In this document: positions 2,209-59,535 of the stretch, piece after piece
How positions within the stretch are numbered: the stretch's first letter is position 1
Layout: the number at the start of each line of letters is the position of its first letter
Source of the DNA: Candidatus Kerfeldbacteria bacterium
GTDB lineage: Bacteria; Patescibacteriota; Patescibacteriia; SBBC01
Assembly: GCA_016207275.1 (NCBI GenBank)
Contig: JACQPY010000018.1
Span: 23,960 to 87,959, forward strand
Reading direction: 5' to 3'
DNA length: 64,000 nucleotides
The notes under the pieces: generated by a model
The model's database searches: none
Seen by the model: only the letters and a program-made list of their open reading frames with translations
Told to the model about the DNA's origin: nothing
Translations under genes and position numbers: made by a program

Positions 2209-2222
<14 letters not shown>
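1818..2222 (-). CDS. Hypothetical protein (DUF3052-like)
   Basis: 134 aa starting MPRANVAGYSKKKLADKLGL. I recall a resemblance to DUF3052 small proteins but cannot confirm it. Confidence 0.4.
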
Positions 2223-5772
<3,550 letters not shown>

Positions 5773-5829
5773 GACTGCGATATATCAGATCGCATTGGTA
5801 CTGTACCTGAAGAACTTGAGGTAGTCAAA

Positions 5830-5946
5830 CCTTCCCTTGTCAATCACCTTCCCTTGTCCCCTCCTGACTTCAGGAGGGGCACGCTTTATCGAACCCCCTC
5901 TTCAATTGAGGAGGGGTGTCCCGAGCACCCCCGACTCGATCGGGGG
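5830..5946. repeat. Family-1 palindromic repeat cluster R2 between the ileS start and the DUF559 gene's 3' end
   Basis: Contains a direct repeat cttcccttgt x2 and three hairpins: cccctcctg-actt-caggagggg, cccctc-ttcaattgag-gagggg and cccccga-ctcga-tcggggg. Confidence 0.65.
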
Positions 5947-6313
5947 CGAGGGACGAGGAGGTGATGAACTCCCGCAGCCGTTCCAACGTACCGTCAAGGT
6001 TATGGAGCACGTCATCGTTCGTGAACCTGACAACTCGAAAAAACATCGATTGTAACCACGCTGTTCGTCTGCGATCGTAGGCTTGCTGGTGTACGGCCCC
6101 GTGGGAATCACCATCAACTTCGACTACCAACCGAAGTTCACGACAATAAAAATCGGCAATGTAGTTGCCAATGCTGTGCTGGCGACGAAATTTCAACCCC
6201 ATAAACTGCTTCGTCTTCAAAGCATTCCACAAAACGACTTCTGCTTTGGAGCTATCCCGCCGAAGCGACCGACGCCGGTCAACGTATTTTGTCAGATTGT
6301 AAATTCGTGGCAT
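5870..6313 (-). CDS. DUF559 endonuclease-domain protein (Vsr-like fold); its C-terminal tail is encoded by the R2 repeat
   Basis: LWNALKTKQFMGLKFRRQHSIGNYIADFYCRELRLVVEVDGDSH is typical of DUF559. The last ~30 codons overlap the hairpin repeats. Confidence 0.75.
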   Translation of the reverse strand: MPRIYNLTKYVDRRRSLRRDSSKAEVVLWNALKTKQFMGLKFRRQHSIGNYIADFYCRELRLVVEVDGDSHGAVHQQAYDRRRTAWLQSMFFRVVRFTNDDVLHNLDGTLERLREFITSSSLAPDRVGGARDTPPQLKRGFDKACPS

Positions 6314-11532: not shown

Positions 11533-11566
11533 ATCCCCCTCCTAGGCTAGGAGGGGCTAGGGGTGG
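11533..11566. repeat. Family-1 hairpin R3 in the divergent intergenic region upstream of smpB
   Basis: ccccctcctag-g-ctaggagggg followed by ctaggggtggtac. Confidence 0.6.
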
Positions 11567-11578
11567 TACGCTCAACCC

Positions 11579-12028
11579 ATGCCACATCTCGCCGACAACC
11601 GCCAAGCCCGTCACGACTACCACATCCTCGAAACCTTCGAGGCCGGCATCATCCTGACCGGCCCGGAAGTGAAATCTGCCAAAGCCGGCCAGGTCAACTT
11701 GCGCGGCAGCTACGTGACCATCAAAGATAACGCGGCTTGGTTGGTCAACTGCCACATTGCTCCGTACAAACCAGCTAACCTCGGCGCTAACTACATTCCC
11801 ACGCGGACACGCAAGCTCTTGCTCCAAGCCCACGAGCTCGCCACCCTGATCGGAAAATCCAAGGCCCAAGGCCAAACCCTCATTCCCCTGTCAGTCTATA
11901 CCAAGCGCGGTTTAGTCAAAGTCCAAATCGCTTTGGCCCGCGGCAAGAAACTCCACGACAAACGCGCCACCATCAAAAAGCGCGAGGCCAAACGCTCGAT
12001 CGAACGGGCCATACGGATGAAATCCTAG
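11579..12028 (+). CDS. smpB: SsrA-binding protein SmpB
   Basis: HDYHILETFEAGIILTGPEVKS...KRGLVKVQIALARGKK is the canonical SmpB sequence. Confidence 0.95.
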   Translation: MPHLADNRQARHDYHILETFEAGIILTGPEVKSAKAGQVNLRGSYVTIKDNAAWLVNCHIAPYKPANLGANYIPTRTRKLLLQAHELATLIGKSKAQGQTLIPLSVYTKRGLVKVQIALARGKKLHDKRATIKKREAKRSIERAIRMKS

Positions 12029-12109: not shown

Positions 12110-12523
12110 GGGGATGCTCAAATGTTGATGCAACCTTGACAAGCTACCATTGCACGGCGTAGCGCCGGAACCTACGTAAAAATTCCGGAAATGATAAGTG
12201 CCAAGACACTGATCAGCAAGCTAAAGACGCTGAAGGATAACTTCTCCGTCCCACAGTTTGCCCCGTCGTTCGCCTAACCCCGAATTAATTCGGGGCCGAA
12301 CGGCCATCCGTCTGGCCGATGCCGATAAGCCAGAGCCGGGTGTAATATCTTTCGGCTGGCCAACATTGTGCTCCACGATGTTGGTAAGAACTCGGAGCTA
12401 GTGACGTCGGCGTCTGGTCTGCCTCTAAGCAGGCGTCACGAACAACCCTGAGGTGGACGAACCGTGTGGACTGTGGTAGAGTGTTGGTTGCAGACGCGGG
12501 CGCACGACCCGCCATCTCCACCA
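12110..12523 (+). ncRNA. ssrA: Candidate tmRNA (ssrA), about 414 nt
   Basis: - It lies immediately downstream of smpB.
- The 5' GGGGATG pairs with the 3' CATCTCC, including a G3:U70 wobble, followed by ACCA.
- A T-arm-like GCGGG-cgcacga-CCCGC abuts the 3' acceptor strand.
- A helix-2-like pairing forms between TGCAACC (~12130) and GGTTGCA (~12487).
- An internal frame ends ...PQFAPSFA-TAA (12275-12277), followed by a perfect hairpin ccccgaattaattcgggg. Confidence 0.7.
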
Positions 12524-13862: not shown

Positions 13863-14210
13863 ATGCGCGTCAAACGCGGCATCATCCACAAAAAACACGT
13901 CAAGAACATCCTCAAACATGCTAAAGGCTACCGTTGGCGTCGAAAAACTTCGGTTAAGCTCGCGAAGGTCGCGGTCACCCACGCCGGCTGGAACGCCTAC
14001 AAACACCGCCGAACCAAAAAGCGCGATTTCCGGCGGCTCTGGCAGATCCGGATCAACGCCGGCGCGCGACAGAATGGCATTACCTACTCTCGGCTAATAC
14101 CGTTGCTCAAAGCCAAGAAGATCGAGCTCAACCGAAAGGTTTTAGCCGAACTGGCGGCCAAACACCCTCAGGTCTTTGCCGAGGTCGTCAAGGTCGCGCA
14201 GGCAAAGTGA
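13863..14210 (+). CDS. rplT: 50S ribosomal protein L20
   Basis: MRVKRGIIHKKHVKNILKHAKGYRWRRK...RKVLAELAAKHPQVF matches L20. Confidence 0.95.
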   Translation: MRVKRGIIHKKHVKNILKHAKGYRWRRKTSVKLAKVAVTHAGWNAYKHRRTKKRDFRRLWQIRINAGARQNGITYSRLIPLLKAKKIELNRKVLAELAAKHPQVFAEVVKVAQAK

Positions 14211-14214
14211 AGCT

Positions 14215-14320
14215 CCACGGCCTCACGGCCGTGGTTTCTCTCGATCCGTGGTTCCGTGGAGCGGAACCCCGCACCGTCCCGACCGCACAAGCGCGTCGGG
14301 ACTGGTGCGTGGGTAAAACA
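14215..14320. repeat. Family-2 element copy A (with a conserved upstream hairpin block) between the convergent rplT and PRTase genes
   Basis: ccacggcc..ggccgtgg and ggttccg-tggag-cggaacc are followed by AACCCCGCACC-gtcccgac...gtcgggac-TGGTGCGTGGGTAA. This is near-identical in layout to copy C at 25521-25608. Confidence 0.6.
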
Positions 14321-23071: not shown

Positions 23072-23664
23072 TGCGGAAACCGGTTGACGATTTACGAAAG
23101 GACATCGTTTTCTCCGCGCACTTACGCCAACACGAATTCGCGTTCCATTCGACCTGGGGACTCTTCAGTCCGGAGGCGATTGATCCAGGATCTAAACTCC
23201 TGATTGATCACCTCGATGTGCGCCCCAACGATACCGCAATTGATCTCGGATGCGGATACGGGGCAATCGGCATCGCCGTGGCGCGTGAAGCGTCGGCGGG
23301 ATACGTTCACCTTGTTGATAAAGACTTCATCGCGGTTGAATACGCCAAAAAGAACATTGCCGTAAACGGCATCGCCAACGCCACCGCCTACCTAAGCAAT
23401 GGATTCAACGCCATTCCCAAGGATCAGCGGTTCGATCTCATTCTTTCAAATCTTCCAGCCAAGGTCGGTCGAGAACTCTACGATATATTCTTCCTTGATG
23501 CCAAAAACTTCCTCAAACCTGGCGGCCGGATCTACGTCGTCACCATTGCCGGCCTCAAGGAATTCATCAAGAAAAACTTCCACGAAATATTCGGGAATTA
23601 CGACAAAGTAAAACAAAATGGCACGCACGTCGTCGCCCGAGCAGTGAAGCGCTCCCCGAGCTGA
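23068..23664 (+). CDS. Class I SAM-dependent methyltransferase (RsmC/RlmG-like small MTase domain)
   Basis: DLGCGYGAIG is SAM motif I, and NLPAKVG is an NPP-like motif. Confidence 0.65.
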   Translation: MMRKPVDDLRKDIVFSAHLRQHEFAFHSTWGLFSPEAIDPGSKLLIDHLDVRPNDTAIDLGCGYGAIGIAVAREASAGYVHLVDKDFIAVEYAKKNIAVNGIANATAYLSNGFNAIPKDQRFDLILSNLPAKVGRELYDIFFLDAKNFLKPGGRIYVVTIAGLKEFIKKNFHEIFGNYDKVKQNGTHVVARAVKRSPS

Positions 23665-23696
23665 CGCTCGGGGTATCAGTCCTTTCGGGCTTTCGG

Positions 23697-23750
23697 AGCG
23701 CGGAACCCCGCACCCGTCCCGCCAGCGGGCGGGACTGGTGCGTGGGTCAA
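23697..23750. repeat. Family-2 element copy B
   Basis: AACCCCGCACC-cgtcccgcc-agcg-ggcgggac-TGGTGCGTGGGTCA. It marks the left edge of an AT-rich islet. Confidence 0.6.
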
Positions 23751-24263
23751 ACGATCATAATCAGCGTTTGGCCTGTCTCGTCAGGAAACGCAGCTGGCGG
23801 GCCAAGTTCATCTATAAGTTTTTTTGAATTTTTGATTCGGTCGCTGACAGAAATATGTTATTCGCACGGACGGGCTGACCTCCAGTTTTCAGTCATAAAA
23901 TTCCTTAAAATATCAAACTCGCTGCAGGTGAGTCCGGCGTCCTTCCCCCAACCTACTCTGCTACCACCTCCGCCCTCTCCATCAACCACGCCAAAGTCAT
24001 AATTTTTGAGCAATCACCTAAATGTAGCTCTACTTACTAAGTCGAATATTTCTGCATTGTTTCTAAAGGCCTCTAGCAGTTTAAGGTTGATTGTCCCTTC
24101 GGGATAATTAGTTTTTTCTTGAATCATTATCAGCTCAACCGTGGCCATAAGAAAGTCGCTGGAATATTCTCCATATTTATTCAAGTCTTCATACTCTTTT
24201 AGGTTGACTTTGGTGAAGAACTGGAATTCAGGCGGATATTTTTTCGAGGGTTGAATTTTCTGG

Positions 24264-25435: not shown

Positions 25436-25520
25436 TTTGCGCTTGTATGACTCCCTGTTGATATCTTACCCGAAGAAAAACCGAATGTCAATTTATGCGA
25501 AATTGTGAAGCTCCATGTCC

Positions 25521-25608
25521 CCACGGCCGTGGTTTCTCTCGATACGTGGTTCCGTGGAGCGAAACCCCGCATCCGCCCCGAGCAATGTCGAGGGGCTGGT
25601 GCGTGGGT
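25521..25608. repeat. Family-2 element copy C (with the conserved upstream hairpin block)
   Basis: ccacggccgtgg...ggttccgtggagcgaaACCCCGCATC-cgccccgag..tcgaggggc-TGGTGCGTGGGTAA. It marks the right edge of the AT-rich islet. Confidence 0.6.
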
Positions 25609-25684
25609 AAGGATTTACTACTCTATGGTACGAGTTTTCCACACCAAAATCAAGAAAAAATCGCGGAAAGCTACAGACTAGCCA

Positions 25685-33231: not shown

Positions 33232-35049
33232 TTAGTCCTTGGCGGCTGAAATCAGCTCGAGCAGCACAAACCGGTCGCGCTCTAGTATAGCACGCCCCTG
33301 CCCAAACTGGTCGCGACTTGCCGTGGTTGTCAGCACGTATGGACCAGCAGCTGTTTCCGCCGTGACCTCACGAACCGCTACACCGGCGCGCCGTAGGTAA
33401 AAGTAACCCGCCGGCTGGGTCAGCAGCTTGACGCCAACCACATCCACCTGCCCGGCCTTGAGGTGATCGAGACGTCCAGCCAGTTCTTGTAACGGCGAGC
33501 TCGTGGGCAGGTGACGCAGGTATGAAATCTGCCAGCCAAGAGCTAAGGCCACGACGTAGATTGTACTAAGCGTAGTTACCGCTTTAAGCGGTCGTTCCCG
33601 CCACCGACGAAGCAACGCGACCACCAGCCACACGACCGCCGCCGTGGTCAGACCGACGACGACTCGGCCACCGCTCGATAGCGCCGCTGCGGGCAGGTAG
33701 GAGTACGGCGTTAGCTGCCAGAGGAGACCTTCGTGCGCCAGTCCAAGCGGCAATCCGTAGACGGCCGCAGCCAAGCTAACTAGGAATCCGCCGGTCAGGA
33801 GCCAATCTGGTCGCTTAACGAGCTCCCACACTGCCCGCGCCAGCAGCAGGACCAAGGCCGGATAGATTGGCAATACGTACCAGTCAAACTTGGTCTGGAT
33901 GACGGAAAAGAGACTAAACACCGCGGCCGCCCAGACCAACAGTAAACGGTCGAGTTCGTCTCGGGAACGCAGCCACCGTCGGGCGCCGAGCAACACTGCC
34001 AACGGAACAAACGCCACAACCGGAAACATTCGCCGCCCAATGATCTCGGCGTACCAGTACCACGGCACTTGGTTGGCGTACAGCGCTTCACCAGCCCGCT
34101 CGAGTATGTGAAAACCGAAGTAGCTTTGCCAAAACTCGCGGCCGTGCCGAACGAGCTCAAGCAGGTGCCATGGCAGCGTCACCACGACGGCGGCCAGCGC
34201 ACTCCAGCCGATCGTCCGCCAACCAACCGACCGCCAGCGCCGACCAAGAATCATATCAGTCGCCACGATGATGGCGGGAATGGCGCCGGCAAACGACTTT
34301 GTCATGACGGCTAAACCAGTCAGCAAGCCGAACCAAATAAACCACCATCTAATCCACTCTCCTCTCTGAGGAGAGGGTGGGTGAGGAGAGAGCGGTCCTC
34401 CCCCTGCCTGCACGCCCCGCCGTAGGCGAGGCTCCGCCGAATGGCGGGCCGAGGGAGGGGGAGTTAGAGGGGGTGGGAGTGCTACGCTTCGCCAATACGC
34501 ATACATCGCCGCTACAAAAAACAACATGAACAGTCCGTCGGTTTCGCCAGTCCGGAAGGCATGGAACAGTACATACCGACCAGTCACGAACAGCACTCCG
34601 GTCAGCACTGCCATGCGCGCATTGCCAAAGACCTGCCAGGCCCAATACGACAACAGCAAGGTCGTCGCCACGCCCGCCACCGCTGACCACAGACGAATGG
34701 CTAATTCGGTCTCGCCAAAAACAGTAAACAAAGCTGCCCGCATCCAGAACGACAGTGGTGGCTTAGCCGTGTACAGCTCATCGCGGTACGACAAGTCGAG
34801 CCAGGCGCCCTGACGGTACATTTCTAGCGTCACGTTGGCATGGATGCCCTCGTCCCAGTTTTCCAACGGCTTGTCACCCAGCCGCCAGAACAGGATGAAA
34901 GAAGAAACGATCGCGACTACCAACAACGCCACCACCAATCGCTGCCGTGCAGTAGTGTTGCTGTTCGCCAACGACAAAGCAGGCACCATCGCCCCCACCC
35001 TAGCAAACGACAAGCTCACCGTCCAGCAGTAAATCCCAATACCCACCAT
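33232..35049 (-). CDS. GT39/GT83-like (PMT_2 family) membrane glycosyltransferase with an in-frame GC-rich repeat insertion
   Basis: GDKPLENWDEGIHANVTLEMYRQGAWL with many TM helices. Residues ~190-232 (PPPLTPPPSARHSAEPRLRRGVQAGGGPLSPHPPSPQRGE) are encoded by repeat R4. Confidence 0.8.
   Translation of the reverse strand: MVGIGIYCWTVSLSFARVGAMVPALSLANSNTTARQRLVVALLVVAIVSSFILFWRLGDKPLENWDEGIHANVTLEMYRQGAWLDLSYRDELYTAKPPLSFWMRAALFTVFGETELAIRLWSAVAGVATTLLLSYWAWQVFGNARMAVLTGVLFVTGRYVLFHAFRTGETDGLFMLFFVAAMYAYWRSVALPPPLTPPPSARHSAEPRLRRGVQAGGGPLSPHPPSPQRGEWIRWWFIWFGLLTGLAVMTKSFAGAIPAIIVATDMILGRRWRSVGWRTIGWSALAAVVVTLPWHLLELVRHGREFWQSYFGFHILERAGEALYANQVPWYWYAEIIGRRMFPVVAFVPLAVLLGARRWLRSRDELDRLLLVWAAAVFSLFSVIQTKFDWYVLPIYPALVLLLARAVWELVKRPDWLLTGGFLVSLAAAVYGLPLGLAHEGLLWQLTPYSYLPAAALSSGGRVVVGLTTAAVVWLVVALLRRWRERPLKAVTTLSTIYVVALALGWQISYLRHLPTSSPLQELAGRLDHLKAGQVDVVGVKLLTQPAGYFYLRRAGVAVREVTAETAAGPYVLTTTASRDQFGQGRAILERDRFVLLELISAAKD
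34353..34482. repeat. Family-1 (CTCTCC variant) palindromic repeat R4 inside the GT39 coding sequence
   Basis: cctctc-tgag-gagagg followed by gtgggtgagg, plus a long-range cctccccct/agggggagg stem. It is the same subfamily as R7. Confidence 0.6.
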
Positions 35050-38011: not shown

Positions 38012-38224
38012 TCCTCAACTCCTTGAGACTCAGGAACGCACGGTGCGTCCTGCGGTTAGGGTGTCGGGTATGTGTCCGTAGATTCTCTACTAACAGTGAT
38101 ATGACTTGGCTGACCAAAAACTGGCCAGCTAGAGTGTTTTTATCGAGCTATCTGCAATCGTTGCAACAGATGCAACGGGTCACCTTACTACATGTTACGG
38201 AAAATGTCAAGGGTTGGGTGGGGA

Positions 38225-47191: not shown

Positions 47192-48574
47192 CTACCGATT
47201 CACCCAGTTGATCCCCAGCCGACCGCCGCCCGGTCCGCCGTAACCGTCGCCGCCGTAGCCCTGGATGCCGCTGATGCCTTCGAGCTCGACTGCTTTCTTG
47301 ACGCTCGGCGAGTAGCTGTAGAGGTCGCCTTGGTTGTTAGCGTAGATAATCAGACTGCCCGGGTACCACAAGACGGCGTAGGAAAACTCTTTGATCGTGT
47401 CGACGGCTCCCTTGGCCAGGTCGTAGATGACGCCGCCGTCGCCCGTCCGGACCAGCAGCTTGCCCGAGTCCGGCGACCAGGCGCTGGGGTTGTCGCCGTA
47501 GAACTTGTCAATTGACTTTTCGTTCAGTTTTCCGGTTTGGACGTTGTGGACGACCAACACCGACTGCCGTTTCTCTTGACTGTAGCTGCTGAATACGAAC
47601 AAGGTGTTGTTCGGCGAGATCGAGTCGGGTGACGGGTAAACGTCGCGCGGCGGGCTAAGCGATCCTTCATCAAGCAGCAACTTGGTCGCCGCCACCTTGC
47701 CATCGCTCAATCTAATCTGGTCGTAGGACCACTTCCCTTTCGGCGGATCACGGTACTGTTCGTCGTCAGTGTAGAGCACCTCAAGCGAAGAACCGTTACC
47801 GGGAAAACCGACCAGCCGCGGCGCCGTGGTGTACGACTTCAGGTCGCGCACTGTCTTATCTTTCAGATTGACGATTTTGACGTAGTTGTTGTTGACGCCT
47901 GACTCGCCGCGGATAACAAAGGCGACCTGGTTGGTCGGCGCGTTGAACAGGATTTCGCTGATCGTCGGCAGGTCGTTGTTGAACAGGTTGTTGCGGTCGT
48001 ACTGGACAACGGTCTCGACCGTGGTCGGCGTAGCCAAGCTCGTCCGGTAGATGCCGATGAACGGGTTGGTGCCGGTGGCGCTGCTCATCAGGAAGACGAT
48101 GCTGTCGCCGTCCCGGCCGAACTGGAACTGCGACGGCGCTGGCGGCAGCTCGGTCAGGCCCAAACTCTGCTGGATCTGGGTGGTGCTAAGCTCAACCGTG
48201 GTAATCGTTTTACCAGTCGCCGCGTTGACCTTAGCCAACCGGGTTACCAGCTTGTCAGTCGAACGACGAAAGGCCACTGCCAGGGTCTTTGAGTCGGCCA
48301 CAGTAAACGGAGCCTCCGGGGCGTCGTAACCGGCTGGTTCCAGCGCGACAGTGACGTTAGCATTTTCATTGGCGTTCGTTACCACCGCCACGTTTACGTT
48401 CTGATTCAGGTCGACCGCTGACGTTACATTCGTCGTCCTGACCGTCCTCGTCGATGACCTGGACGAATAGACCACAAAGTAGCTGGCCGCGAAAAACGCC
48501 GCCAGTCCGGCGATGATGACCAGGACCGGCACAAGGGTCATTCCACGGTGGGGATTGGGCATAGAAGCCTCCAA
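47192..48574 (-). CDS. N-anchored secreted protein with a probable beta-propeller (TolB/WD40-like) C-terminal region
   Basis: TM anchor plus NQNVNVAVVTNANENANVT linker. Repeated short beta-strand motifs suggest a propeller. Confidence 0.35.
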   Translation of the reverse strand: MEASMPNPHRGMTLVPVLVIIAGLAAFFAASYFVVYSSRSSTRTVRTTNVTSAVDLNQNVNVAVVTNANENANVTVALEPAGYDAPEAPFTVADSKTLAVAFRRSTDKLVTRLAKVNAATGKTITTVELSTTQIQQSLGLTELPPAPSQFQFGRDGDSIVFLMSSATGTNPFIGIYRTSLATPTTVETVVQYDRNNLFNNDLPTISEILFNAPTNQVAFVIRGESGVNNNYVKIVNLKDKTVRDLKSYTTAPRLVGFPGNGSSLEVLYTDDEQYRDPPKGKWSYDQIRLSDGKVAATKLLLDEGSLSPPRDVYPSPDSISPNNTLFVFSSYSQEKRQSVLVVHNVQTGKLNEKSIDKFYGDNPSAWSPDSGKLLVRTGDGGVIYDLAKGAVDTIKEFSYAVLWYPGSLIIYANNQGDLYSYSPSVKKAVELEGISGIQGYGGDGYGGPGGGRLGINWVNR

Positions 48575-48629
48575 TGTTGTTTTCCTACCGATTAAAATAC
48601 CACGTCAGCGTTGCTAAAAGCAACTATCA

Positions 48630-48720
48630 CCTCCTGTCCTCCTCTTATATCAAGAGGAGGGACTTGCTAAAGGCCTGTTCGCGAGTCCTCCCTCTTCCCT
48701 GAAGAGGGAGACGGAGGGTG
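48630..48720. repeat. Family-1 composite repeat R5 upstream of DUF559 gene 2
   Basis: tcctcctctt-atatc-aagaggagga, then GACTTGCTAAAGGCC, then tcctccctcttc..gaagagggagacggagggtg. It is a direct copy of R6. Confidence 0.65.
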
Positions 48721-48781
48721 ATACACTTGACACTGCATTAAATGTCTTCTACGCTGTAGTCCGGTGGCATAACCATACAAC

Positions 48782-49192
48782 ATGCCGCCACATTTTTTAT
48801 ACAACAACCCGTCGTTTAAGCGACGACGGCAAAAGCTGCGAAACAAGTCAACACCGGCTGAACGAAAACTTTGGGGACATCTTCGAAAAAGTCAGTTGTT
48901 GGGCTTAAAGTTCCAACGGCAGTATGGGATCGGCCCGTACGTGCTTGATTTCTTTTGTCCGGAATTACGACTGGCAATTGAAGTTGACGGCGACTCACAT
49001 TTCACGCCCGACGCCCGCGCCTACGATCAGCAACGTCAACAATTCATCGAGAACGAGGATATCGCCGTGGTCAGGTTTCTCAATACCGACATTCACGAGA
49101 ATATGGATGGCGTGCTAACAAAGCTAGGCGAGGTAGTGATGTCTCTTACCACCCCTTGTTCCCCTCCTACGCTAGGAGGGGAGACTTGCTAA
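48782..49192 (+). CDS. DUF559 endonuclease-domain protein (copy 2); its C-terminal tail is encoded by repeat R6
   Basis: LWGHLRKSQLLGLKFQRQYGIGPYVLDFFCPELRLAIEVDGDSH matches DUF559. The tail ..TTPCSPPTLGGETC lies in the hairpin. Confidence 0.75.
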   Translation: MPPHFLYNNPSFKRRRQKLRNKSTPAERKLWGHLRKSQLLGLKFQRQYGIGPYVLDFFCPELRLAIEVDGDSHFTPDARAYDQQRQQFIENEDIAVVRFLNTDIHENMDGVLTKLGEVVMSLTTPCSPPTLGGETC

Positions 49193-49250
49193 AAGCCGTT
49201 AGCATATCCTCCCTCCTAGGGTAGGAGGGAGACAGAGGGTGGTACCAAAA
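49160..49250. repeat. Family-1 composite repeat R6 at the 3' end of DUF559 gene 2
   Basis: tcccctccta-cgc-taggagggga, then GACTTGCTAAAAGCC, then tcctccctcctagggtaggagggagacagagggtgg. Confidence 0.65.
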
Positions 49251-49258
49251 CAACCAAC

Positions 49259-50650
49259 CTAGTTCTTATAAATCACAATCGGCATGCCGACCTCGCCCCA
49301 GGTAAAGATCCACTCCGAGTCGTCGACTGACTGGCCGACGCAGCCGTGCGAGCGCGGCCGGATGCCGAAGTCGTTGTGCCAGTAAACGCCGTGCAGTGAG
49401 TAGTCGCCTTTGAACCACAAAATATTCGGCACGTTCGGCAGGTAGTAGCCAGGACCGGACATCTTCTGCTTTTTGGTTTTGGCGTACACGCGGAACGTGC
49501 CGGTCGGCGTCCAGTCATTGATACCAGACGAGATTTTCATCGAGTAGACCAGCTGGCCGTCTTGGTAGGCGTAGGCCTGCTGTTTCGTCAGGTCAACGCC
49601 AACTACCTTACCCGTGCCGATGGGCGCGGCCGGTGGTTCGGCCAGCTGCGTCTCAAACGGCACGTCGGTCAGGGCCAGCTCGAGCGGCTGGCGGTCACCC
49701 GCCAGCAGGTGCGTCCGCACCTGCGCGACCGCCTGATCGATAACCAGGCGTTTTCCCGGAACGCCAACTTGCAGCACGTCGGTTTTGTGCTGGCTCTTCA
49801 GAATCGTTTGCGCTACGGGATCTCGCTCAACCGCCGCGGCCTGGGCTCGCAAAAACTCGCTGACCGCGTCAGCGTTTAGATCAAGCTGTCCGGCCGGGCC
49901 GGCCGGCAGGGCGCGGCCGAGCGCGGCCACGGTCCGCGGTGGCGATTCAACGCCGAAGGCTAGCCAGTTCGCCAGGTCCGGTCGTTCGACGATCACGGTT
50001 TGGTCGCCGAGTTTCAGCGTCAGGGGTTCTGCGACCAATCCTTCGGCCGCGGCTACCAGCGGTCGCAAGTCGTCTTCGGTCACGGCCGGTCGGGCTAGCA
50101 CCAGCGGCACGTCAACGGTGACGGCGGTCGCGCGCTCGAGCGCCGGCTTGAGCTTAGCCATCACCGCCGATTCATCAACCACCAACCCCTCAGCGCCGGG
50201 CACCAACGCAAAAGCACCATCAGCGCCAACCGTCACCGTGGCCGGTTTTGGCTGAACGCCTAGGCTCCGCACCAACGCATCAAAGTACGGCTGCCGTTCC
50301 TCGGCTGGCCAGTCGAATGTCATTGGCACGCGCCACCACCACCGTCCCCGCCCAACGCTGAAGGCTTTTGCGGCCAGCGGCCGGGCATCGTACCGAACGC
50401 CGAGGTCAGCGGGAGTCGCGGTCAGGTAGTGATCGTTCAGCCGCAACTCGATCGGCTGTTGGCTCGTGGCCTGCTCAATGGTCGCGGTCGCCTGTTGTCT
50501 CGTTAAGCCGCCAACCGGCACCGATCCAACCGTAACGCCCGGCAGAATTGTATCGTCAAACGAAACGGCGAAAGCAAATGTTGCCGCGCTCAGCACGAAC
50601 GGCACCGCTTGCTTCAAGCCAATATGAAGTCTGGTTTTGGTTTCAACCAC
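49259..50650 (-). CDS. L,D-transpeptidase (YkuD domain) family protein with an N-terminal TM
   Basis: The C-terminal YkuD catalytic motif is ...LHGVYWHNDFG..SHGCV. Confidence 0.75.
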   Translation of the reverse strand: MVETKTRLHIGLKQAVPFVLSAATFAFAVSFDDTILPGVTVGSVPVGGLTRQQATATIEQATSQQPIELRLNDHYLTATPADLGVRYDARPLAAKAFSVGRGRWWWRVPMTFDWPAEERQPYFDALVRSLGVQPKPATVTVGADGAFALVPGAEGLVVDESAVMAKLKPALERATAVTVDVPLVLARPAVTEDDLRPLVAAAEGLVAEPLTLKLGDQTVIVERPDLANWLAFGVESPPRTVAALGRALPAGPAGQLDLNADAVSEFLRAQAAAVERDPVAQTILKSQHKTDVLQVGVPGKRLVIDQAVAQVRTHLLAGDRQPLELALTDVPFETQLAEPPAAPIGTGKVVGVDLTKQQAYAYQDGQLVYSMKISSGINDWTPTGTFRVYAKTKKQKMSGPGYYLPNVPNILWFKGDYSLHGVYWHNDFGIRPRSHGCVGQSVDDSEWIFTWGEVGMPIVIYKN

Positions 50651-55039: not shown

Positions 55040-55165
55040 CCTTCCCCTCTCCTCTCCGAGGAGAGGGCTGGGGTGAGGTTACGGTTGCGGGACAGTTCCG
55101 GAATTGATTTCCCTCCCCTTTCAGGTCCTCTCCTTTGCATTCTGCAAAGGGGAGGGGTCAGGAGT
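55040..55165. repeat. Family-1 (CTCTCC variant) palindromic repeat R7
   Basis: cctctc-cgag-gagagg followed by gctggggtgagg, then a cctttgca-ttc-tgcaaagg hairpin and ggggaggggtcaggagtgggg. Confidence 0.6.
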
Positions 55166-55374
55166 GGGGTCGCACCGGATTGCCTACATTCGTATTTTCA
55201 ATGTGTGGTTGACGACGAACTAACTACTGATCCCTAACCCCCAAACCCTATCTTGTCACCCAGTACATGAAGGAAAAGACGAACACCGCCGCGGCCATGA
55301 AGAAAATCAACCACAAAAACTGCAGGAGTGTCGACTTTTTTTCGAGTGGATTATGAAACATTGTTTTTGGTTAA

Positions 55375-59487: not shown

Positions 59488-59535
59488 CACCCCTCCCCTT
59501 CGACCTCCCCAAGGGGAGGGGTCGGGGGTGGGGTC
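59488..59535. repeat. Family-1 hairpin R8 between nrdB and nrdJ
   Basis: cccctcccctt-cgacctcccc-aaggggagggg is an 11-bp stem, followed by tcgggggtggggtctacc. Confidence 0.6.

Follow-up and report, generated by a model that had tools for sequence, protein, structure and literature searches.

The BoxC/PIT/TM repeats of bacterial genomes have been known since 1992 and are conserved and linked to instability, and we know of no partner protein, origin or function for them. DUF559, a very large family of small nucleases, likewise has no assigned role to our knowledge. The repeats have been described as BoxC, as PIT elements and as TM motifs (TMECO) (Bergler 1992; Hoyne & Maher 2000; Holder et al. 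2015, PMC4666352). The last of these papers, which gives the triplex-motif definition and a table of the motifs in E. coli MG1655, lists five inverted pairs in that genome and reports that TMECO motifs form stable triplexes in vitro by CD and NMR and stop polymerases, and that TM motifs mark rearrangement-prone loci in E. coli. According to the same paper (PMC4666352), the flanks of TM motifs hold no mobility genes and represent no functional class, Maher's group saw neither promoter nor terminator activity in these elements, and, in literature cited there, the purine-motif triplex does not form in RNA.

Repeats paired with a gene are described in the REPIN-RAYT system (Bertels & Rainey 2011, PMC3116915, PMC3337134; bioRxiv 10.1101/2021.07.10.451892). 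RAYT is a HUH/Y1 tyrosine transposase related to IS200, whereas DUF559 proteins belong with the Vsr-like PD-(D/E)XK nucleases, a fold shared with E. coli Vsr, I-Bth0305I (PDB 3R3P), N. gonorrhoeae NGO0050 (PDB 3HRL), YcjD and Caulobacter VsrA. For the last of these, which contains DUF559, the experimental link is with cytosine methylation and DNA damage rather than with repeats. Here we describe two DUF559 genes and their repeats within a window of 64,000 nucleotides of Candidatus Kerfeldbacteria DNA (the whole stretch analysed), and compare them with DUF559 loci of other bacteria. Unlike E. coli vsr, the Kerfeldbacteria DUF559 genes do not adjoin a cytosine methyltransferase gene, and, unlike I-Bth0305I, they do not lie within an intron or intein.

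Results

Gene 2, the second DUF559 gene of the window (48782-49192, + strand), encodes a protein of 136 aa that matches Pfam DUF559 with E=5.8e-29 and is predicted to be a Vsr-like PD-(D/E)XK nuclease. The initial annotation placed this gene between two copies of a composite repeat in the same orientation, and this is the case, although the true ends of the copies, R5 (48625-48723, +) and R6 (49147-49244, +), differ by a few bases from those first given. The arrangement of R5 and R6 around gene 2 is real, and chance is ruled out. The proposed common layout of a hairpin, a core and a further hairpin or arm is also confirmed by the sequence, in that both copies run from a TAYCACC arm through hairpin a, the core GACTTGCTAAARGCC and hairpin b to a GGGTGRTA arm (repeat family D8). 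The core is exact in both copies, and there are exactly two occurrences, with 0 mismatches, in the 64-kb window. Each composite of ~100 nt is an inverted pair of two half-units. In each half-unit a pyrimidine-first hairpin precedes a G-rich arm, which is the mirror image of the hairpin's purine arm, so that the half-unit as single-stranded DNA can adopt a purine-motif triplex. Whereas R5 and R6 stand to each other as direct repeats, their gene-proximal half-units are mutually inverted. Motifs were scored by the triplex rule, under which a pyrimidine arm is followed by a pairing purine arm and by a third strand mirroring that purine arm (G opposite G; A or T opposite A), with stems of 6-15 nt, ≤1 mismatch and short loops.

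The left half of R5 (48626-48660, -), which is on the list of strict motifs, satisfies the triplex rule at 9/9 positions and, read on the plus strand, runs from the C-rich arm ATCACCTCC into hairpin a (CCTCCTCTT/AAGAGGAGG). It is joined by a linker with the conserved core GACTTGCTAAAGGCC (48661-48687, +) to the right half (48688-48723, +; triplex rule 9/10), in which hairpin b (CTCCCTCTTC/GAAGAGGGAG) precedes a G-rich third strand, GAGGGTGATA, directed at gene 2. The linker sets the orientation of the composite. As RNA, R5 folds at -54 kcal/mol (z=-6.1). R5 is found in the window and at the syntenic loci L002 and L003, and it is missing from L004. The interval between R5 and the start codon of gene 2 (48724-48781, +) is a conserved, non-coding leader with a TTGACA box, which is kept in L002 and L003 within a block of 83.5% identity and of which L004 has only the TTGACA...CGGTGGC part; a consensus scan called no promoter in this leader. 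The possibility that R5 is a relic of a DUF559 3' end was rejected, the alignment being suggestive and the formal test giving p = 0.06-0.38.

R6 folds at -69.8 kcal/mol (z=-9.5) and is kept at the gene's 3' terminus in all four Kerfeldbacteria genomes (4/4), with stop codons at differing positions. Its left half (49148-49182, -; triplex rule 9/9) reads on the plus strand as the C-rich arm ACCACCCCT followed by hairpin a, with the third strand facing gene 2, and its right half (49209-49243, +; triplex rule 9/9) as hairpin b followed by the third strand GAGGGTGGT. Because the stop codon of gene 2 (49190-49192) lies inside R6, the repeat encodes the C-terminus of the protein as had been suggested, but the overlap comprises the last 14-15 codons plus the stop rather than about 17 codons. 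No T-run terminator is present in R6.

Gene 1 (5870-6313, -; 147 aa; Pfam DUF559 E=1.9e-34) was also said to end inside a repeat cluster, and its last ~32 codons indeed fall within a composite at 5840-5967 (-) that folds at -76.2 kcal/mol (z=-6.5). The latter has arms ATCACCTCC/GGAAGGTGAT, one extra hairpin and two pyrimidine-first hairpins, and includes a strict triplex motif (5846-5879, -; triplex rule 7/8). The structure model of the gene 1 protein is confident over residues 1-120, and the repeat-encoded tail is disordered. Gene 1 lies upstream of IleRS here and also in L205 (53% aa identity) and L206 (69%), both of which carry orthologues of the composite. An insertion polymorphism at this site could not be demonstrated, the insert beside IleRS being present in L205 as well. 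Fold z-scores of the composites in the window range from -5.5 to -9.5. Subtypes of the repeat follow the paralogues, with ATCACC arms at gene 1 and ACCACC arms at R6 of gene 2. The 64-kb window has 8 strict triplex motifs, 5 of which adjoin one or other of the two DUF559 genes; orphan single motifs lie at 11536-11567 (+; triplex rule 8/8), 12 nt upstream of smpB, at 34355-34388 (+; 10/10) and at 55045-55080 (+; 9/10). The last orphan is followed by a looser motif at 55127-55170, and a further looser motif with a 10-nt loop occurs at 59489-59535.

These elements, annotated at first as "family-1 composite repeats", represent the known intrastrand-triplex repeat BoxC/PIT/TM in the form of inverted doublets, and the repeat itself is therefore not new. 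They have the same pyrimidine-first hairpin, short loop and G-rich mirror arm, with G*G·C, T*A·T and A*A·T triads, and like the published elements, which are widespread and highly conserved across bacteria, they occur both as inverted pairs (R5, R6 and the gene 1 element) and as singlets (11536, 34355 and 55045). At a conformity of ≥80%, the triplex rule is satisfied by 40% of hairpin-strand instances compared with 1.1% of random flanks, and the triads number 2384 G*G, 719 A*T and 244 A*A, with ~4% other. Moreover, the third strand covaries with its own hairpin, since swapping third strands between motifs lowers conformity from 0.963 to 0.677. The window copies do not match the TMECO consensus of E. 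coli, CCCTCNCCC-N3-6-GGGNGAGGG-N3-GGGNGAGGG; they read CTCCCTCCTA...TAGGAGGGAG...GAGGGTGGT and have other stems, including CTCCCTCCTA and CCTCCTCTT; they are thus sequence variants of the triplex class, not TMECO itself. The Kerfeldbacteria doublets also differ in being mostly arm-outside composites with a conserved linker, and published work (PMC4666352) gives the motif no associated gene and no mobility function.

Watson-Crick folding programs, which cannot score triplexes, predict both a cloverleaf and a long rod for the composites. Covariation supports the local hairpins plus an outer stem (90.3% paired cells; score 0.443 vs 0.265 for shuffles), and the long rod was rejected as the conserved structure (77% paired and 0.225, against 90% and 0.443). 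Given that the third strand obeys the purine-motif rule and that such triplexes reportedly do not form in RNA, the primary constraint is on DNA. A known RNA family was rejected as the identity of the repeat: Rfam 15 at gathering score returned only tmRNA and tRNA for the whole window, an E-value scan of 48540-49300 gave nothing near threshold, and there was no Rfam match at 12 other loci. Mimicry of SD or anti-SD sequences, or SD sequestration, is plausible at single loci such as L024 but is not general, and the third-strand rule indicates DNA. A type III toxin-antitoxin repeat array and an omega-RNA-like guide overlapping the 3' end of the ORF were set aside because the repeats also occur downstream and in scattered positions and because the constraint is one on DNA. 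A G-quadruplex is permitted by the sequence, but one was excluded by NMR for TMECO (Holder et al., PMC4666352).

Both DUF559 genes are predicted to encode a small Vsr-like PD-(D/E)XK nuclease, and the Vsr-like fold that the initial annotation assigned to them is well supported. They match Pfam DUF559 / MTES_1575, not Y1_Tnp, with scores of 100.6 and 118.3 bits against a cutoff of 20.6, and acidic and histidine residues are invariant in the DUF559 alignment. Structure searches (model pLDDT 83) retrieved 3HRL (E=3.5e-8, TM 0.89) and 3R3P (probability 1.0, TM 0.78), the latter being the catalytic domain of the Vsr-like homing endonuclease I-Bth0305I and the nearest characterised structure; gene 2 matches PDB 3HRL at E=3e-16. 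Scores against the NCBIfam YcjD equivalog (70-85 bits) fall under its cutoff of 218, and PADLOC gave weak matches to a methyl-directed restriction enzyme and to DpdF.

Gene 2 is syntenic in L002, L003 and L004, where the DUF559 protein is 82, 78 and 67% identical, respectively, and the neighbouring proteins are 39-61% identical, as against 67-82% for DUF559. Its dN/dS of 0.07-0.19 is in the range of housekeeping genes, and its dS is about half that of its neighbours in comparison with L002 and L003 and equal to that of its neighbours in comparison with L004. DUF559 genes are single or low in copy number per genome, with two paralogues within 64 kb here, and were found on 44 of 72,556 plasmids and in 2 of 50,697 phages. 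The Kerfeldbacteria loci lie among housekeeping genes, outside R-M islands. Taken together, synteny, purifying selection and rarity on plasmids and phages argue against a hopping cassette and resemble the situation of REPIN-RAYT.

The association was then measured around 75 DUF559 genes (80 loci) from Nitrospirae, Cyanobacteria, Gammaproteobacteria, CPR, Bacteroidota, Chloroflexi, Planctomycetes and others, which were picked by the single peptide pattern IEVDGDSH and so cover one DUF559 subfamily; many of the 80 loci come from related groups (Nitrospira, Pseudanabaena, Thiothrix-like), and the 75 genes are accordingly not independent. A triplex motif lies ≤250 nt downstream of 63% of these genes, upstream of 65% and on either side of 84%, leaving 16% of the sample with no motif within 250 nt. 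For 407 other ORFs of the same loci the values are 2.7% downstream and 1.5% upstream (p = 7e-35 and 5e-41), and the odds ratios for DUF559 relative to other genes in the same loci are 60-126. Seen from the repeats, DUF559 is the sole recurring family among 285 neighbouring ORFs, and of the 82 repeats for which both flanks are available, 9 (~11%) have a DUF559 gene within 250 nt, ~89% being without one. The recurrent pairing of DUF559 with a structured repeat, which had been suggested from two genes, therefore holds strongly and across many phyla, and the odds ratios and the lack of any other recurrent neighbour are contrary to the idea that the repeats are no more common near DUF559 than elsewhere.

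The pairing also has a preferred geometry. Orientation was judged by linker asymmetry, which fixes the orientation of the composite, and by third-strand polarity, pyrimidine-first hairpins being unchanged by reverse complementation. The nearest upstream motif is sense in 43 of 53 cases and the nearest downstream motif antisense in 43 of 52 (p ~1e-6 on each side), at gaps of 37 nt upstream and 9 nt downstream, and the third strands of these two motifs face the DUF559 gene in the manner of terminal inverted repeats. At most loci the stop codon of the DUF559 ORF lies within the first downstream motif. Four of the five MG1655 doublets in Table 1 of Holder et al. (PMC4666352) are likewise sense-then-antisense, 16-27 nt apart, and thus have the bracket geometry of the DUF559 loci without an ORF.

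The same pairing is present in E. coli, where TMECO no. 9 (Holder Table 1, PMC4666352) lies 168 nt downstream of ycjD on the same strand and the unit beside ycjD satisfies the TMECO consensus. Of 5426 E. coli genomes, 3378 carry gene and motif together and the others lack the whole unit; the eef allele of the ycjD interval has neither. A duplicated 3' fragment of ycjD is found downstream of the gene. The median number of repeat places is 19 in ycjD+ and 6 in ycjD- genomes, a difference that tracks phylogroup and so amounts to only a few independent contrasts; ycjD- strains retain 1-16 motif copies. The link between DUF559 and this repeat appears to be new, being absent from PMC4666352 and from the literature found as open-access text.

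Discussion

The locus resembles REPIN-RAYT in several respects. The gene is short (~400-500 bp), conserved and bordered by a repeat; the repeat unit is a short palindrome with a conserved head that forms inverted doublets with a variable spacer and folds into long hairpins; the repeats far outnumber the gene, with many ORF-less copies per genome (8 strict motifs and 2 genes in the window); and each of the two DUF559 paralogues has its own repeat subtype. In its low copy number, synteny, apparently vertical descent and rarity on plasmids the gene also recalls RAYT, a likeness qualified by the two paralogues within 64 kb, by the halved dS against L002 and L003 and by the polymorphism of ycjD in E. 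coli. The differences, apart from the unrelated nuclease, are that REPINs are species-specific whereas the triplex repeat is nearly the same across phyla, and that the triplex repeat carries a triplex-forming third strand. A classical RAYT was rejected as the partner, since motifs are missing around the lone Y1_Tnp-like gene seen, that of L002, and the window contains no homolog of it. In having a gene between inverted structured ends and short ORF-less derivatives that retain both ends, the DUF559 element is also reminiscent of MITEs, but it has no recognised transposase and no consistent target-site duplication, and MITE turnover is rapid whereas DUF559 and its repeat are conserved deeply and vertically, with sequence kept across phyla. 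Integron attC cassettes were dismissed because the arms are TAYCACC/GGTGRTA, with no RYYYAAC...GTTRRRY core sites, no recurring integrase and no diverse cargo.

On this basis we suggest tentatively, as a reading with a fair amount in its favour that could yet prove wrong, that the small DUF559 nuclease is the cognate trans-acting partner of the BoxC/TM repeats in a relationship like that of REPIN and RAYT. We infer that the protein may bind, cleave and copy or mobilise the motif. The nuclease would recognise the folded hairpin/triplex motif, probably in single-stranded DNA at replication forks, and would nick at or beside it. The pair of inverted motifs around the gene, their third strands turned inward, would be the ends of an ancestral motif-gene-motif element, of which the ORF-less doublets and singlets across the genome would be non-autonomous derivatives, copied rarely by nuclease supplied from one or two vertically inherited gene copies. 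Such an arrangement would work like REPIN-RAYT but on a different nuclease. We know of no strand-transfer activity of a lone PD-(D/E)XK nuclease. The more far-reaching proposal, that DUF559 is a second, independently evolved class of domesticated repeat-associated nuclease which recognises the intrastrand triplex and drives slow copying of BoxC/TM doublets, we regard as doubtful. The initial annotation had left the choice between a RAYT-REP-like relationship and a selfish cassette bounded by the repeats. The former fits better in view of synteny, low copy number, purifying selection, rarity on plasmids and phages and the inverted bracket, and deep synteny and slow protein evolution tell against the latter, although it draws support from the presence or absence of ycjD and its motif as a unit.

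A selfish, homing-type DUF559 gene might nevertheless, alone or with one motif, land between inverted motifs that act as its targets and homology arms, and we consider this unlikely. The ORF fits exactly between units, as in L017, where it replaces 2 nt of an inter-unit spacer, while in L033 it sits in the linker of a unit with ACTCGA on both sides, and DUF559 fragments adjoin motifs in L077, L079, L141 and L149, to which the duplicated ycjD fragment may be added. The relation of the fold to the homing endonuclease domain of I-Bth0305I, the halved dS of gene 2 against L002 and L003 and the all-or-none occurrence of ycjD with its motif point the same way. Homing endonuclease genes are typically sporadic and quick to decay. 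On the other hand, four Kerfeldbacteria genomes with flanking proteins only ~40-60% identical have a DUF559 gene at the gene 2 locus, gene 1 is fixed upstream of IleRS, the dN/dS values are those of housekeeping genes, the dS against L004 equals that of the neighbours, and these single- or low-copy genes are nearly absent from plasmids and phages.

Decidedly unlikely, in our judgement, is that DUF559 is a caretaker, a structure-specific host nuclease that removes or repairs the triplexes or hairpins of the motifs, which can block polymerases, and limits damage with no spreading, the motifs at its own gene serving as sensors or autoregulators. Such a role would suit both the stable triplexes, polymerase stops and rearrangement-prone loci reported for E. 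coli (PMC4666352) and the strong conservation and apparent vertical inheritance of the gene, and non-coding R5 and the leader are conserved about as well as the coding region. It leaves unexplained, however, the precise inverted bracket with inward third strands and the same geometry in doublets that have no ORF; ycjD- lineages of E. coli, moreover, have fewer motifs and not more signs of trouble, a weak and confounded argument.

The motifs might instead act only in cis, as barriers, insulators or expression dampers for an adjacent and potentially toxic nuclease gene, and be unrelated to the substrate of the protein. The lack of promoter room between upstream motif and ORF at many loci would accord with this idea, as would the position of the stop codon inside the first downstream motif at most loci and the hairpin AAGGAGG and G-arm GTG of L024, which could be a ribosome-binding site and start codon. 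We hold it to be improbable, because third-strand covariation follows the purine-motif triplex rule and places the constraint primarily on DNA, because no promoter or terminator activity was found for these elements (Maher's group, via PMC4666352) and R6 has no T-run terminator, and because it does not explain why DUF559 alone among genes carries the motifs. No more probable is an unrelated function, in which DUF559 is a VSP-type mismatch endonuclease tied to a cytosine methyltransferase, the role proposed for Caulobacter VsrA, and the repeat link is a by-product of gene location, for instance in R-M islands and unstable intergenic DNA. The DUF559-containing VsrA of Caulobacter causes methylation-dependent DNA damage, several DUF559 loci lie within type I R-M operons, and the weak PADLOC matches (to the methyl-directed restriction enzyme and DpdF) can be added. 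Other genes of the same loci, R-M genes included, lack the motifs all the same (2.7% and 1.5%), the bracket geometry is specific, and in Kerfeldbacteria the surroundings are housekeeping genes, not R-M islands. Passive hitch-hiking, whereby motifs build up beside whichever small, dispensable gene lies in permissive intergenic DNA and a few loci of common ancestry account for the pattern, gains something from the related groups among the 80 loci but is very improbable given that the pattern persists across unrelated phyla (protein identities ~40-50%) and in E. coli, that no other gene family recurs beside motifs and that the polarity bias is significant on each side.

If the REPIN-RAYT-like partnership that we favour is correct, the DUF559 nuclease may be the missing protein partner of the repeat from CPR bacteria to E. 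coli. The pairing of ycjD with TMECO no. 9 in E. coli K-12 makes the idea directly testable by standard genetics and biochemistry, with no need of the uncultured organism. The link gives a candidate function for the DUF559 family and a candidate for the missing enzyme of BoxC/PIT/TM, and points to a possible second REPIN-RAYT lifestyle built on an unrelated nuclease. Under the more far-reaching proposal, which we hold to be doubtful, BoxC/TM and DUF559 would form a pan-bacterial analogue of REPIN-RAYT, extending from CPR bacteria to YcjD of E. coli K-12, and DUF559 would be the first protein with an intrastrand DNA triplex as its natural substrate.

The DUF559 genes end within composite repeats

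DUF559 gene 2 (48782-49192, + strand; 136 aa, Pfam E=5.8e-29) lies between two composite repeats of the same orientation, R5 (48625-48723, +) and R6 (49147-49244, +), which have in common the layout TAYCACC arm, hairpin a, core GACTTGCTAAARGCC, hairpin b, and GGGTGRTA arm. The direct-repeat arrangement described in the initial annotation is confirmed, the core occurring exactly twice in the whole window with no mismatches. R6 contains the gene 2 stop codon and encodes the final 14-15 codons of the gene, so that the coding overlap stands with a corrected length (about 17 codons had been proposed). DUF559 gene 1 (5870-6313, - strand; 147 aa, Pfam E=1.9e-34) likewise ends inside its repeat cluster, with its last ~32 codons encoded by a composite element at 5840-5967 (-). 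Both genes are clear Pfam members whose 3' ends are embedded in structured repeats, and the composite elements of the window give fold z-scores of -5.5 to -9.5 relative to shuffled controls and match no Rfam family. Structurally, the protein comes closest to 3HRL (TM 0.89), which is an uncharacterised DUF559 protein from N. gonorrhoeae, and to the I-Bth0305I catalytic domain (probability 1.0, TM 0.78), I-Bth0305I being a Vsr-like homing endonuclease, in agreement with the fold assigned earlier. Residues 1-120 are confident in the AlphaFold model and the repeat-encoded tail is disordered, so that the tail is a read-through product rather than a domain.

Each composite is an inverted pair of triplex motifs

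The repeat has three names, BoxC (first noticed beside envM, now fabI), PIT elements, and triplex motifs (TM), the last denoting a pyrimidine-first hairpin with a G-rich mirror arm after it, which together form a purine-motif intrastrand triplex in vitro (Holder et al. 2015, PMC4666352). The same authors report a wide and highly conserved distribution in bacteria, with 23 copies in MG1655, all intergenic and including five inverted pairs. They tie the motif to rearrangement-prone loci, and near the motifs they found neither transposase or integrase remnants nor any functional class of flanking gene. The words endonuclease, DUF559, and ycjD are absent from their main text. When the triplex rule was applied to all collected DNA, counting every hairpin on both strands, 40% of hairpin-strand instances had at least 80% conforming triads compared to 1.1% of random flanks, the third-strand triads being G*G (2384), A*T (719), A*A (244), and others (~4%). 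Swapping third strands between motifs of different purine arm lowered conformity from 0.963 to 0.677, and each third strand thus covaries with its own hairpin. Given that purine-motif triplexes are not formed by RNA, according to literature cited in Holder et al. 2015 (PMC4666352), this covariation suggests that the constraint acts on DNA. The R5 and R6 halves conform to the rule at 9/9, 9/10, 9/9, and 9/9 positions, so that each composite pairs two triplex motifs in inverted orientation. Its outer stem is formed by the third strands of the pair, whose sequences complement each other. Across ten Kerfeldbacteria-type elements, local hairpins plus outer stem give 90.3% paired cells and a covariation of 0.443 (shuffled, 0.265); a single long rod is less supported, with 77.3% paired cells and a covariation of 0.225 (shuffled, 0.183).

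DUF559 and the motif are associated across phyla

Many DUF559 homologs from unrelated phyla have C-termini reading TTPxxPP..GG, ITSPDPS, or PLPQGEG, which are translations of the C-rich arm together with the CCTCC-type hairpin after it. In most of 80 DUF559 loci drawn from species-representative genomes by one single peptide pattern, the strongest hairpin just past the domain is CCCCTCCTT-loop-AAGGAGGGG or CCCTCCCCT-loop-AGGGGAGGG. The composite unit also occurs in Thiothrix-like, Pseudanabaena, Uhrbacteria, and other genomes, and in some loci the DUF559 ORF is slotted between units of a tandem array. Among 75 DUF559 genes, a strict triplex motif lies within 250 nt downstream in 63% and upstream in 65%; 44% have one on each flank and 84% on one flank or more. 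The corresponding values for 407 other ORFs of the same loci are 2.7% downstream and 1.5% upstream (odds ratio 60, p = 7e-35 downstream; 126, p = 5e-41 upstream), although many sampled loci are related and so are not independent. The recurrent association proposed initially is also recovered from the repeat side. When metagenome contigs were scanned for the repeat itself, DUF559 was the sole recurrent family (12 members) among 285 repeat-adjoining ORFs, every other cluster having fewer than three. Of 82 repeats that have sequence to either side, only 9 lie within 250 nt of DUF559, meaning that most copies are orphans. As a separate observation, DUF559 fragments adjoin motifs in four loci (L077, L079, L141, and L149).

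Because pyrimidine-first hairpins are identical on both strands, orientation was judged by linker asymmetry and third-strand polarity. Composite linkers are purine-rich first on the coding strand and end in ...CTTGTT on either side of the gene (purine fraction >0.55 in 25, <0.45 in 2), and the gene-flanking composites are consequently true direct repeats of fixed orientation. Upstream, the motif closest to the gene is sense in 43/53 cases, its G-arm adjoining the gene (p ~1e-6); downstream, the closest one is antisense in 43/52, its C-arm adjoining the gene (p ~1e-6), at median gaps from the DUF559 domain match of 37 nt and 9 nt, respectively. This polarity implies that the gene is bracketed by inverted motifs with third strands facing it, a layout similar to that of a gene between terminal inverted repeats. 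In the table of Holder et al. 2015, 4/5 MG1655 doublets are sense-then-antisense with 16-27 nt between, representing the same bracket without an ORF.

The window genes are stable and under selection

The window derives from a Candidatus Kerfeldbacteria MAG (CPR/Patescibacteria), and three other assemblies of Kerfeldbacteria (L002, L003, and L004) have the same gene 2 neighbors, PsbP_2-like on one side and YkuD/PG_binding_4 on the other. All four genomes carry R6 at the gene 2 3' end, with variable loops, compensatory stem changes, and a shifting stop codon position, and R5 is present in 3/4, being missing from L004, the most distant. Gene 2 amino acid identities (82/78/67% for L002/L003/L004) are top or joint top among proteins of the block (YkuD 39-42%, HtrA 66-72%, most others 37-61%). 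From R5 to R6, the window shares 83.5% nucleotide identity with L002 across a 630-nt alignment that ends at the repeats' outer edges. Gene 2 (48782-49189) has a dN/dS of 0.07-0.19, comparable to that of its HtrA neighbor. Its dS is 0.58 against L002 and 0.93 against L003, with neighboring genes about twofold higher (1.3-2.3), and equals that of its neighbors against L004; the low values could reflect nucleotide-level constraint or between-lineage exchange of the R5-R6 block. Gene 1 is similarly fixed in place. Locus L205 has, in order, a GT4 gene, a small gene, DUF559 (53% aa identity), the composite element, and IleRS, and the DUF559-element-IleRS segment is kept at L206 (69%). Both genes are stable and under selection, neither decaying nor recently moved, and the fixed gene order and low dN/dS speak against the selfish cassette that had been offered as one reading. 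A 133-aa Y1_Tnp-like (IS200/RAYT-type) gene at 3128-3529 of L002 is surrounded by no triplex motifs and has no homolog within the window.

The IleRS ORF beside gene 1 (2209-5772, -; 1187 aa) has a His_Phos_1 domain inserted at residues 515-678 (Pfam E=1.6e-31), a histidine phosphatase insertion that is unusual for an aminoacyl-tRNA synthetase. It also carries a ~26-aa in-frame insert (PRPRSSARGGKREAAPPQAGGEVYKN, window ~4815-4895), missing from solved IleRS structures, over a pyrimidine-first hairpin and G-rich tract that look like a decayed repeat unit; the L205 ortholog has a similar insert, which must therefore be old. In three genomes a GCGAYCTGAT-TCGC hairpin directly precedes the IleRS start codon (window ~5775-5800 (-), GCGATCTGATATATCGC; L205 ~5505-5525, GCGATCTGATATATCGC; L206 ~1575-1595, GCGACCTGATTTGTCGC) and may have a regulatory role for ileS.

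Elsewhere in the window, a single triplex motif (11536-11567) lies 12 nt upstream of the start of smpB (11579-12028), which is followed by tmRNA (12110-12523); in L205, smpB is within a few kb of the gene-1-type DUF559. Another repeat of ~74 nt + 23 nt (families D3 and D9), with its own hairpins, has copies at 14207-14319, 23646-23752, and 25505-25613 and no Rfam match at gathering score. The short family D5, GTCAAATGTCAAACGTCAAATGT (1787, 22020, 38632, and 55363; inverted at 38223), and hairpin family D7, TCATCCTTCGA...TCAGGATGA (22049, 55416, and 55523), are frequently side by side.

In E. coli, ycjD and its motif vary together

The DUF559 gene of E. coli K-12 is ycjD, which adjoins fabI. 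The YcjD C-terminus (...NRRSPSP*) runs into a C-rich arm, and the unit CCCTCGCCCCTCTGGGGAGAGGGTTAGGGTGAGGGG, 168 nt downstream on the same strand, is E. coli triplex motif TMECO no. 9 (Table 1, Holder et al. 2015, PMC4666352). Between the ycjD stop and this motif, K-12 (NC_000913.3, ~1351290-1351340) has a ~40-nt near-duplicate of the ycjD 3' end (GGAGACGGTGCTGGAGAATATTC...). ycjD is single copy in 3378/5426 complete E. coli genomes, and in the remainder the fabI-sapF interval is occupied by the efflux operon eefRABCD, with no triplex motif in the interval. Comparing K-12 with an eef allele, ycjD plus motif and eefRABCD are alternative occupants. At this locus, gene and motif are gained or lost as one. 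In a spread sample, repeat places number 11-27 in ycjD+ genomes (median 19, n=37) and 1-16 in ycjD- genomes (median 6, n=22; Mann-Whitney p 1e-9), a difference that tracks phylogroup, is confounded by phylogeny, and is only suggestive. Those ycjD+ genomes with a more divergent downstream stretch have 11-13 places, near the 12 of ycjD- O157:H7. Few DUF559 homologs are carried by plasmids (44/72,556 records, 37 of the 44 non-mobilizable) or phages (2/50,697).

Interpretation

By analogy, a REPIN-RAYT-like partnership between DUF559 and the repeat fits these data best. The nuclease gene is short, conserved, low in copy number, and probably vertically inherited, and it is bracketed by inverted repeat units; ORF-less doublets and singlets are numerous elsewhere; and repeat subtypes are paralogue-specific (ATCACC arms for gene 1, ACCACC arms in R6 of gene 2). 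The RAYT-REP-like relation suggested initially is consistent with these features but not with the defining HUH/Y1 transposase, which is absent, so that the DUF559 system stands outside the REPIN-RAYT family while probably functioning like it. DUF559 would recognise and nick the folded motif, and the scattered motifs would be descended from the termini of an ancestral motif-gene-motif element. Alternatively, DUF559 might be a homing-type gene aiming at motif doublets, or a caretaker nuclease that resolves motif structures, or the motifs might have a purely cis role. Very-short-patch repair unrelated to repeats is a further rival; experiments on Caulobacter VsrA, which contains DUF559, tie the protein to cytosine methylation and DNA damage, not repeats, and no other experimental work on DUF559-containing proteins was found in open-access text. 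Passive hitch-hiking is the last of these rivals.

The repeat and the DUF559 family have each been described already, and the link between them appears to be new. It is absent from open-access papers mentioning DUF559, from Holder et al. 2015 (PMC4666352), and from open-access papers containing both 'intrastrand triplex' and 'ycjD'. The presence of ycjD and its motif in E. coli K-12 allows the proposed REPIN-RAYT-like partnership to be tested directly.
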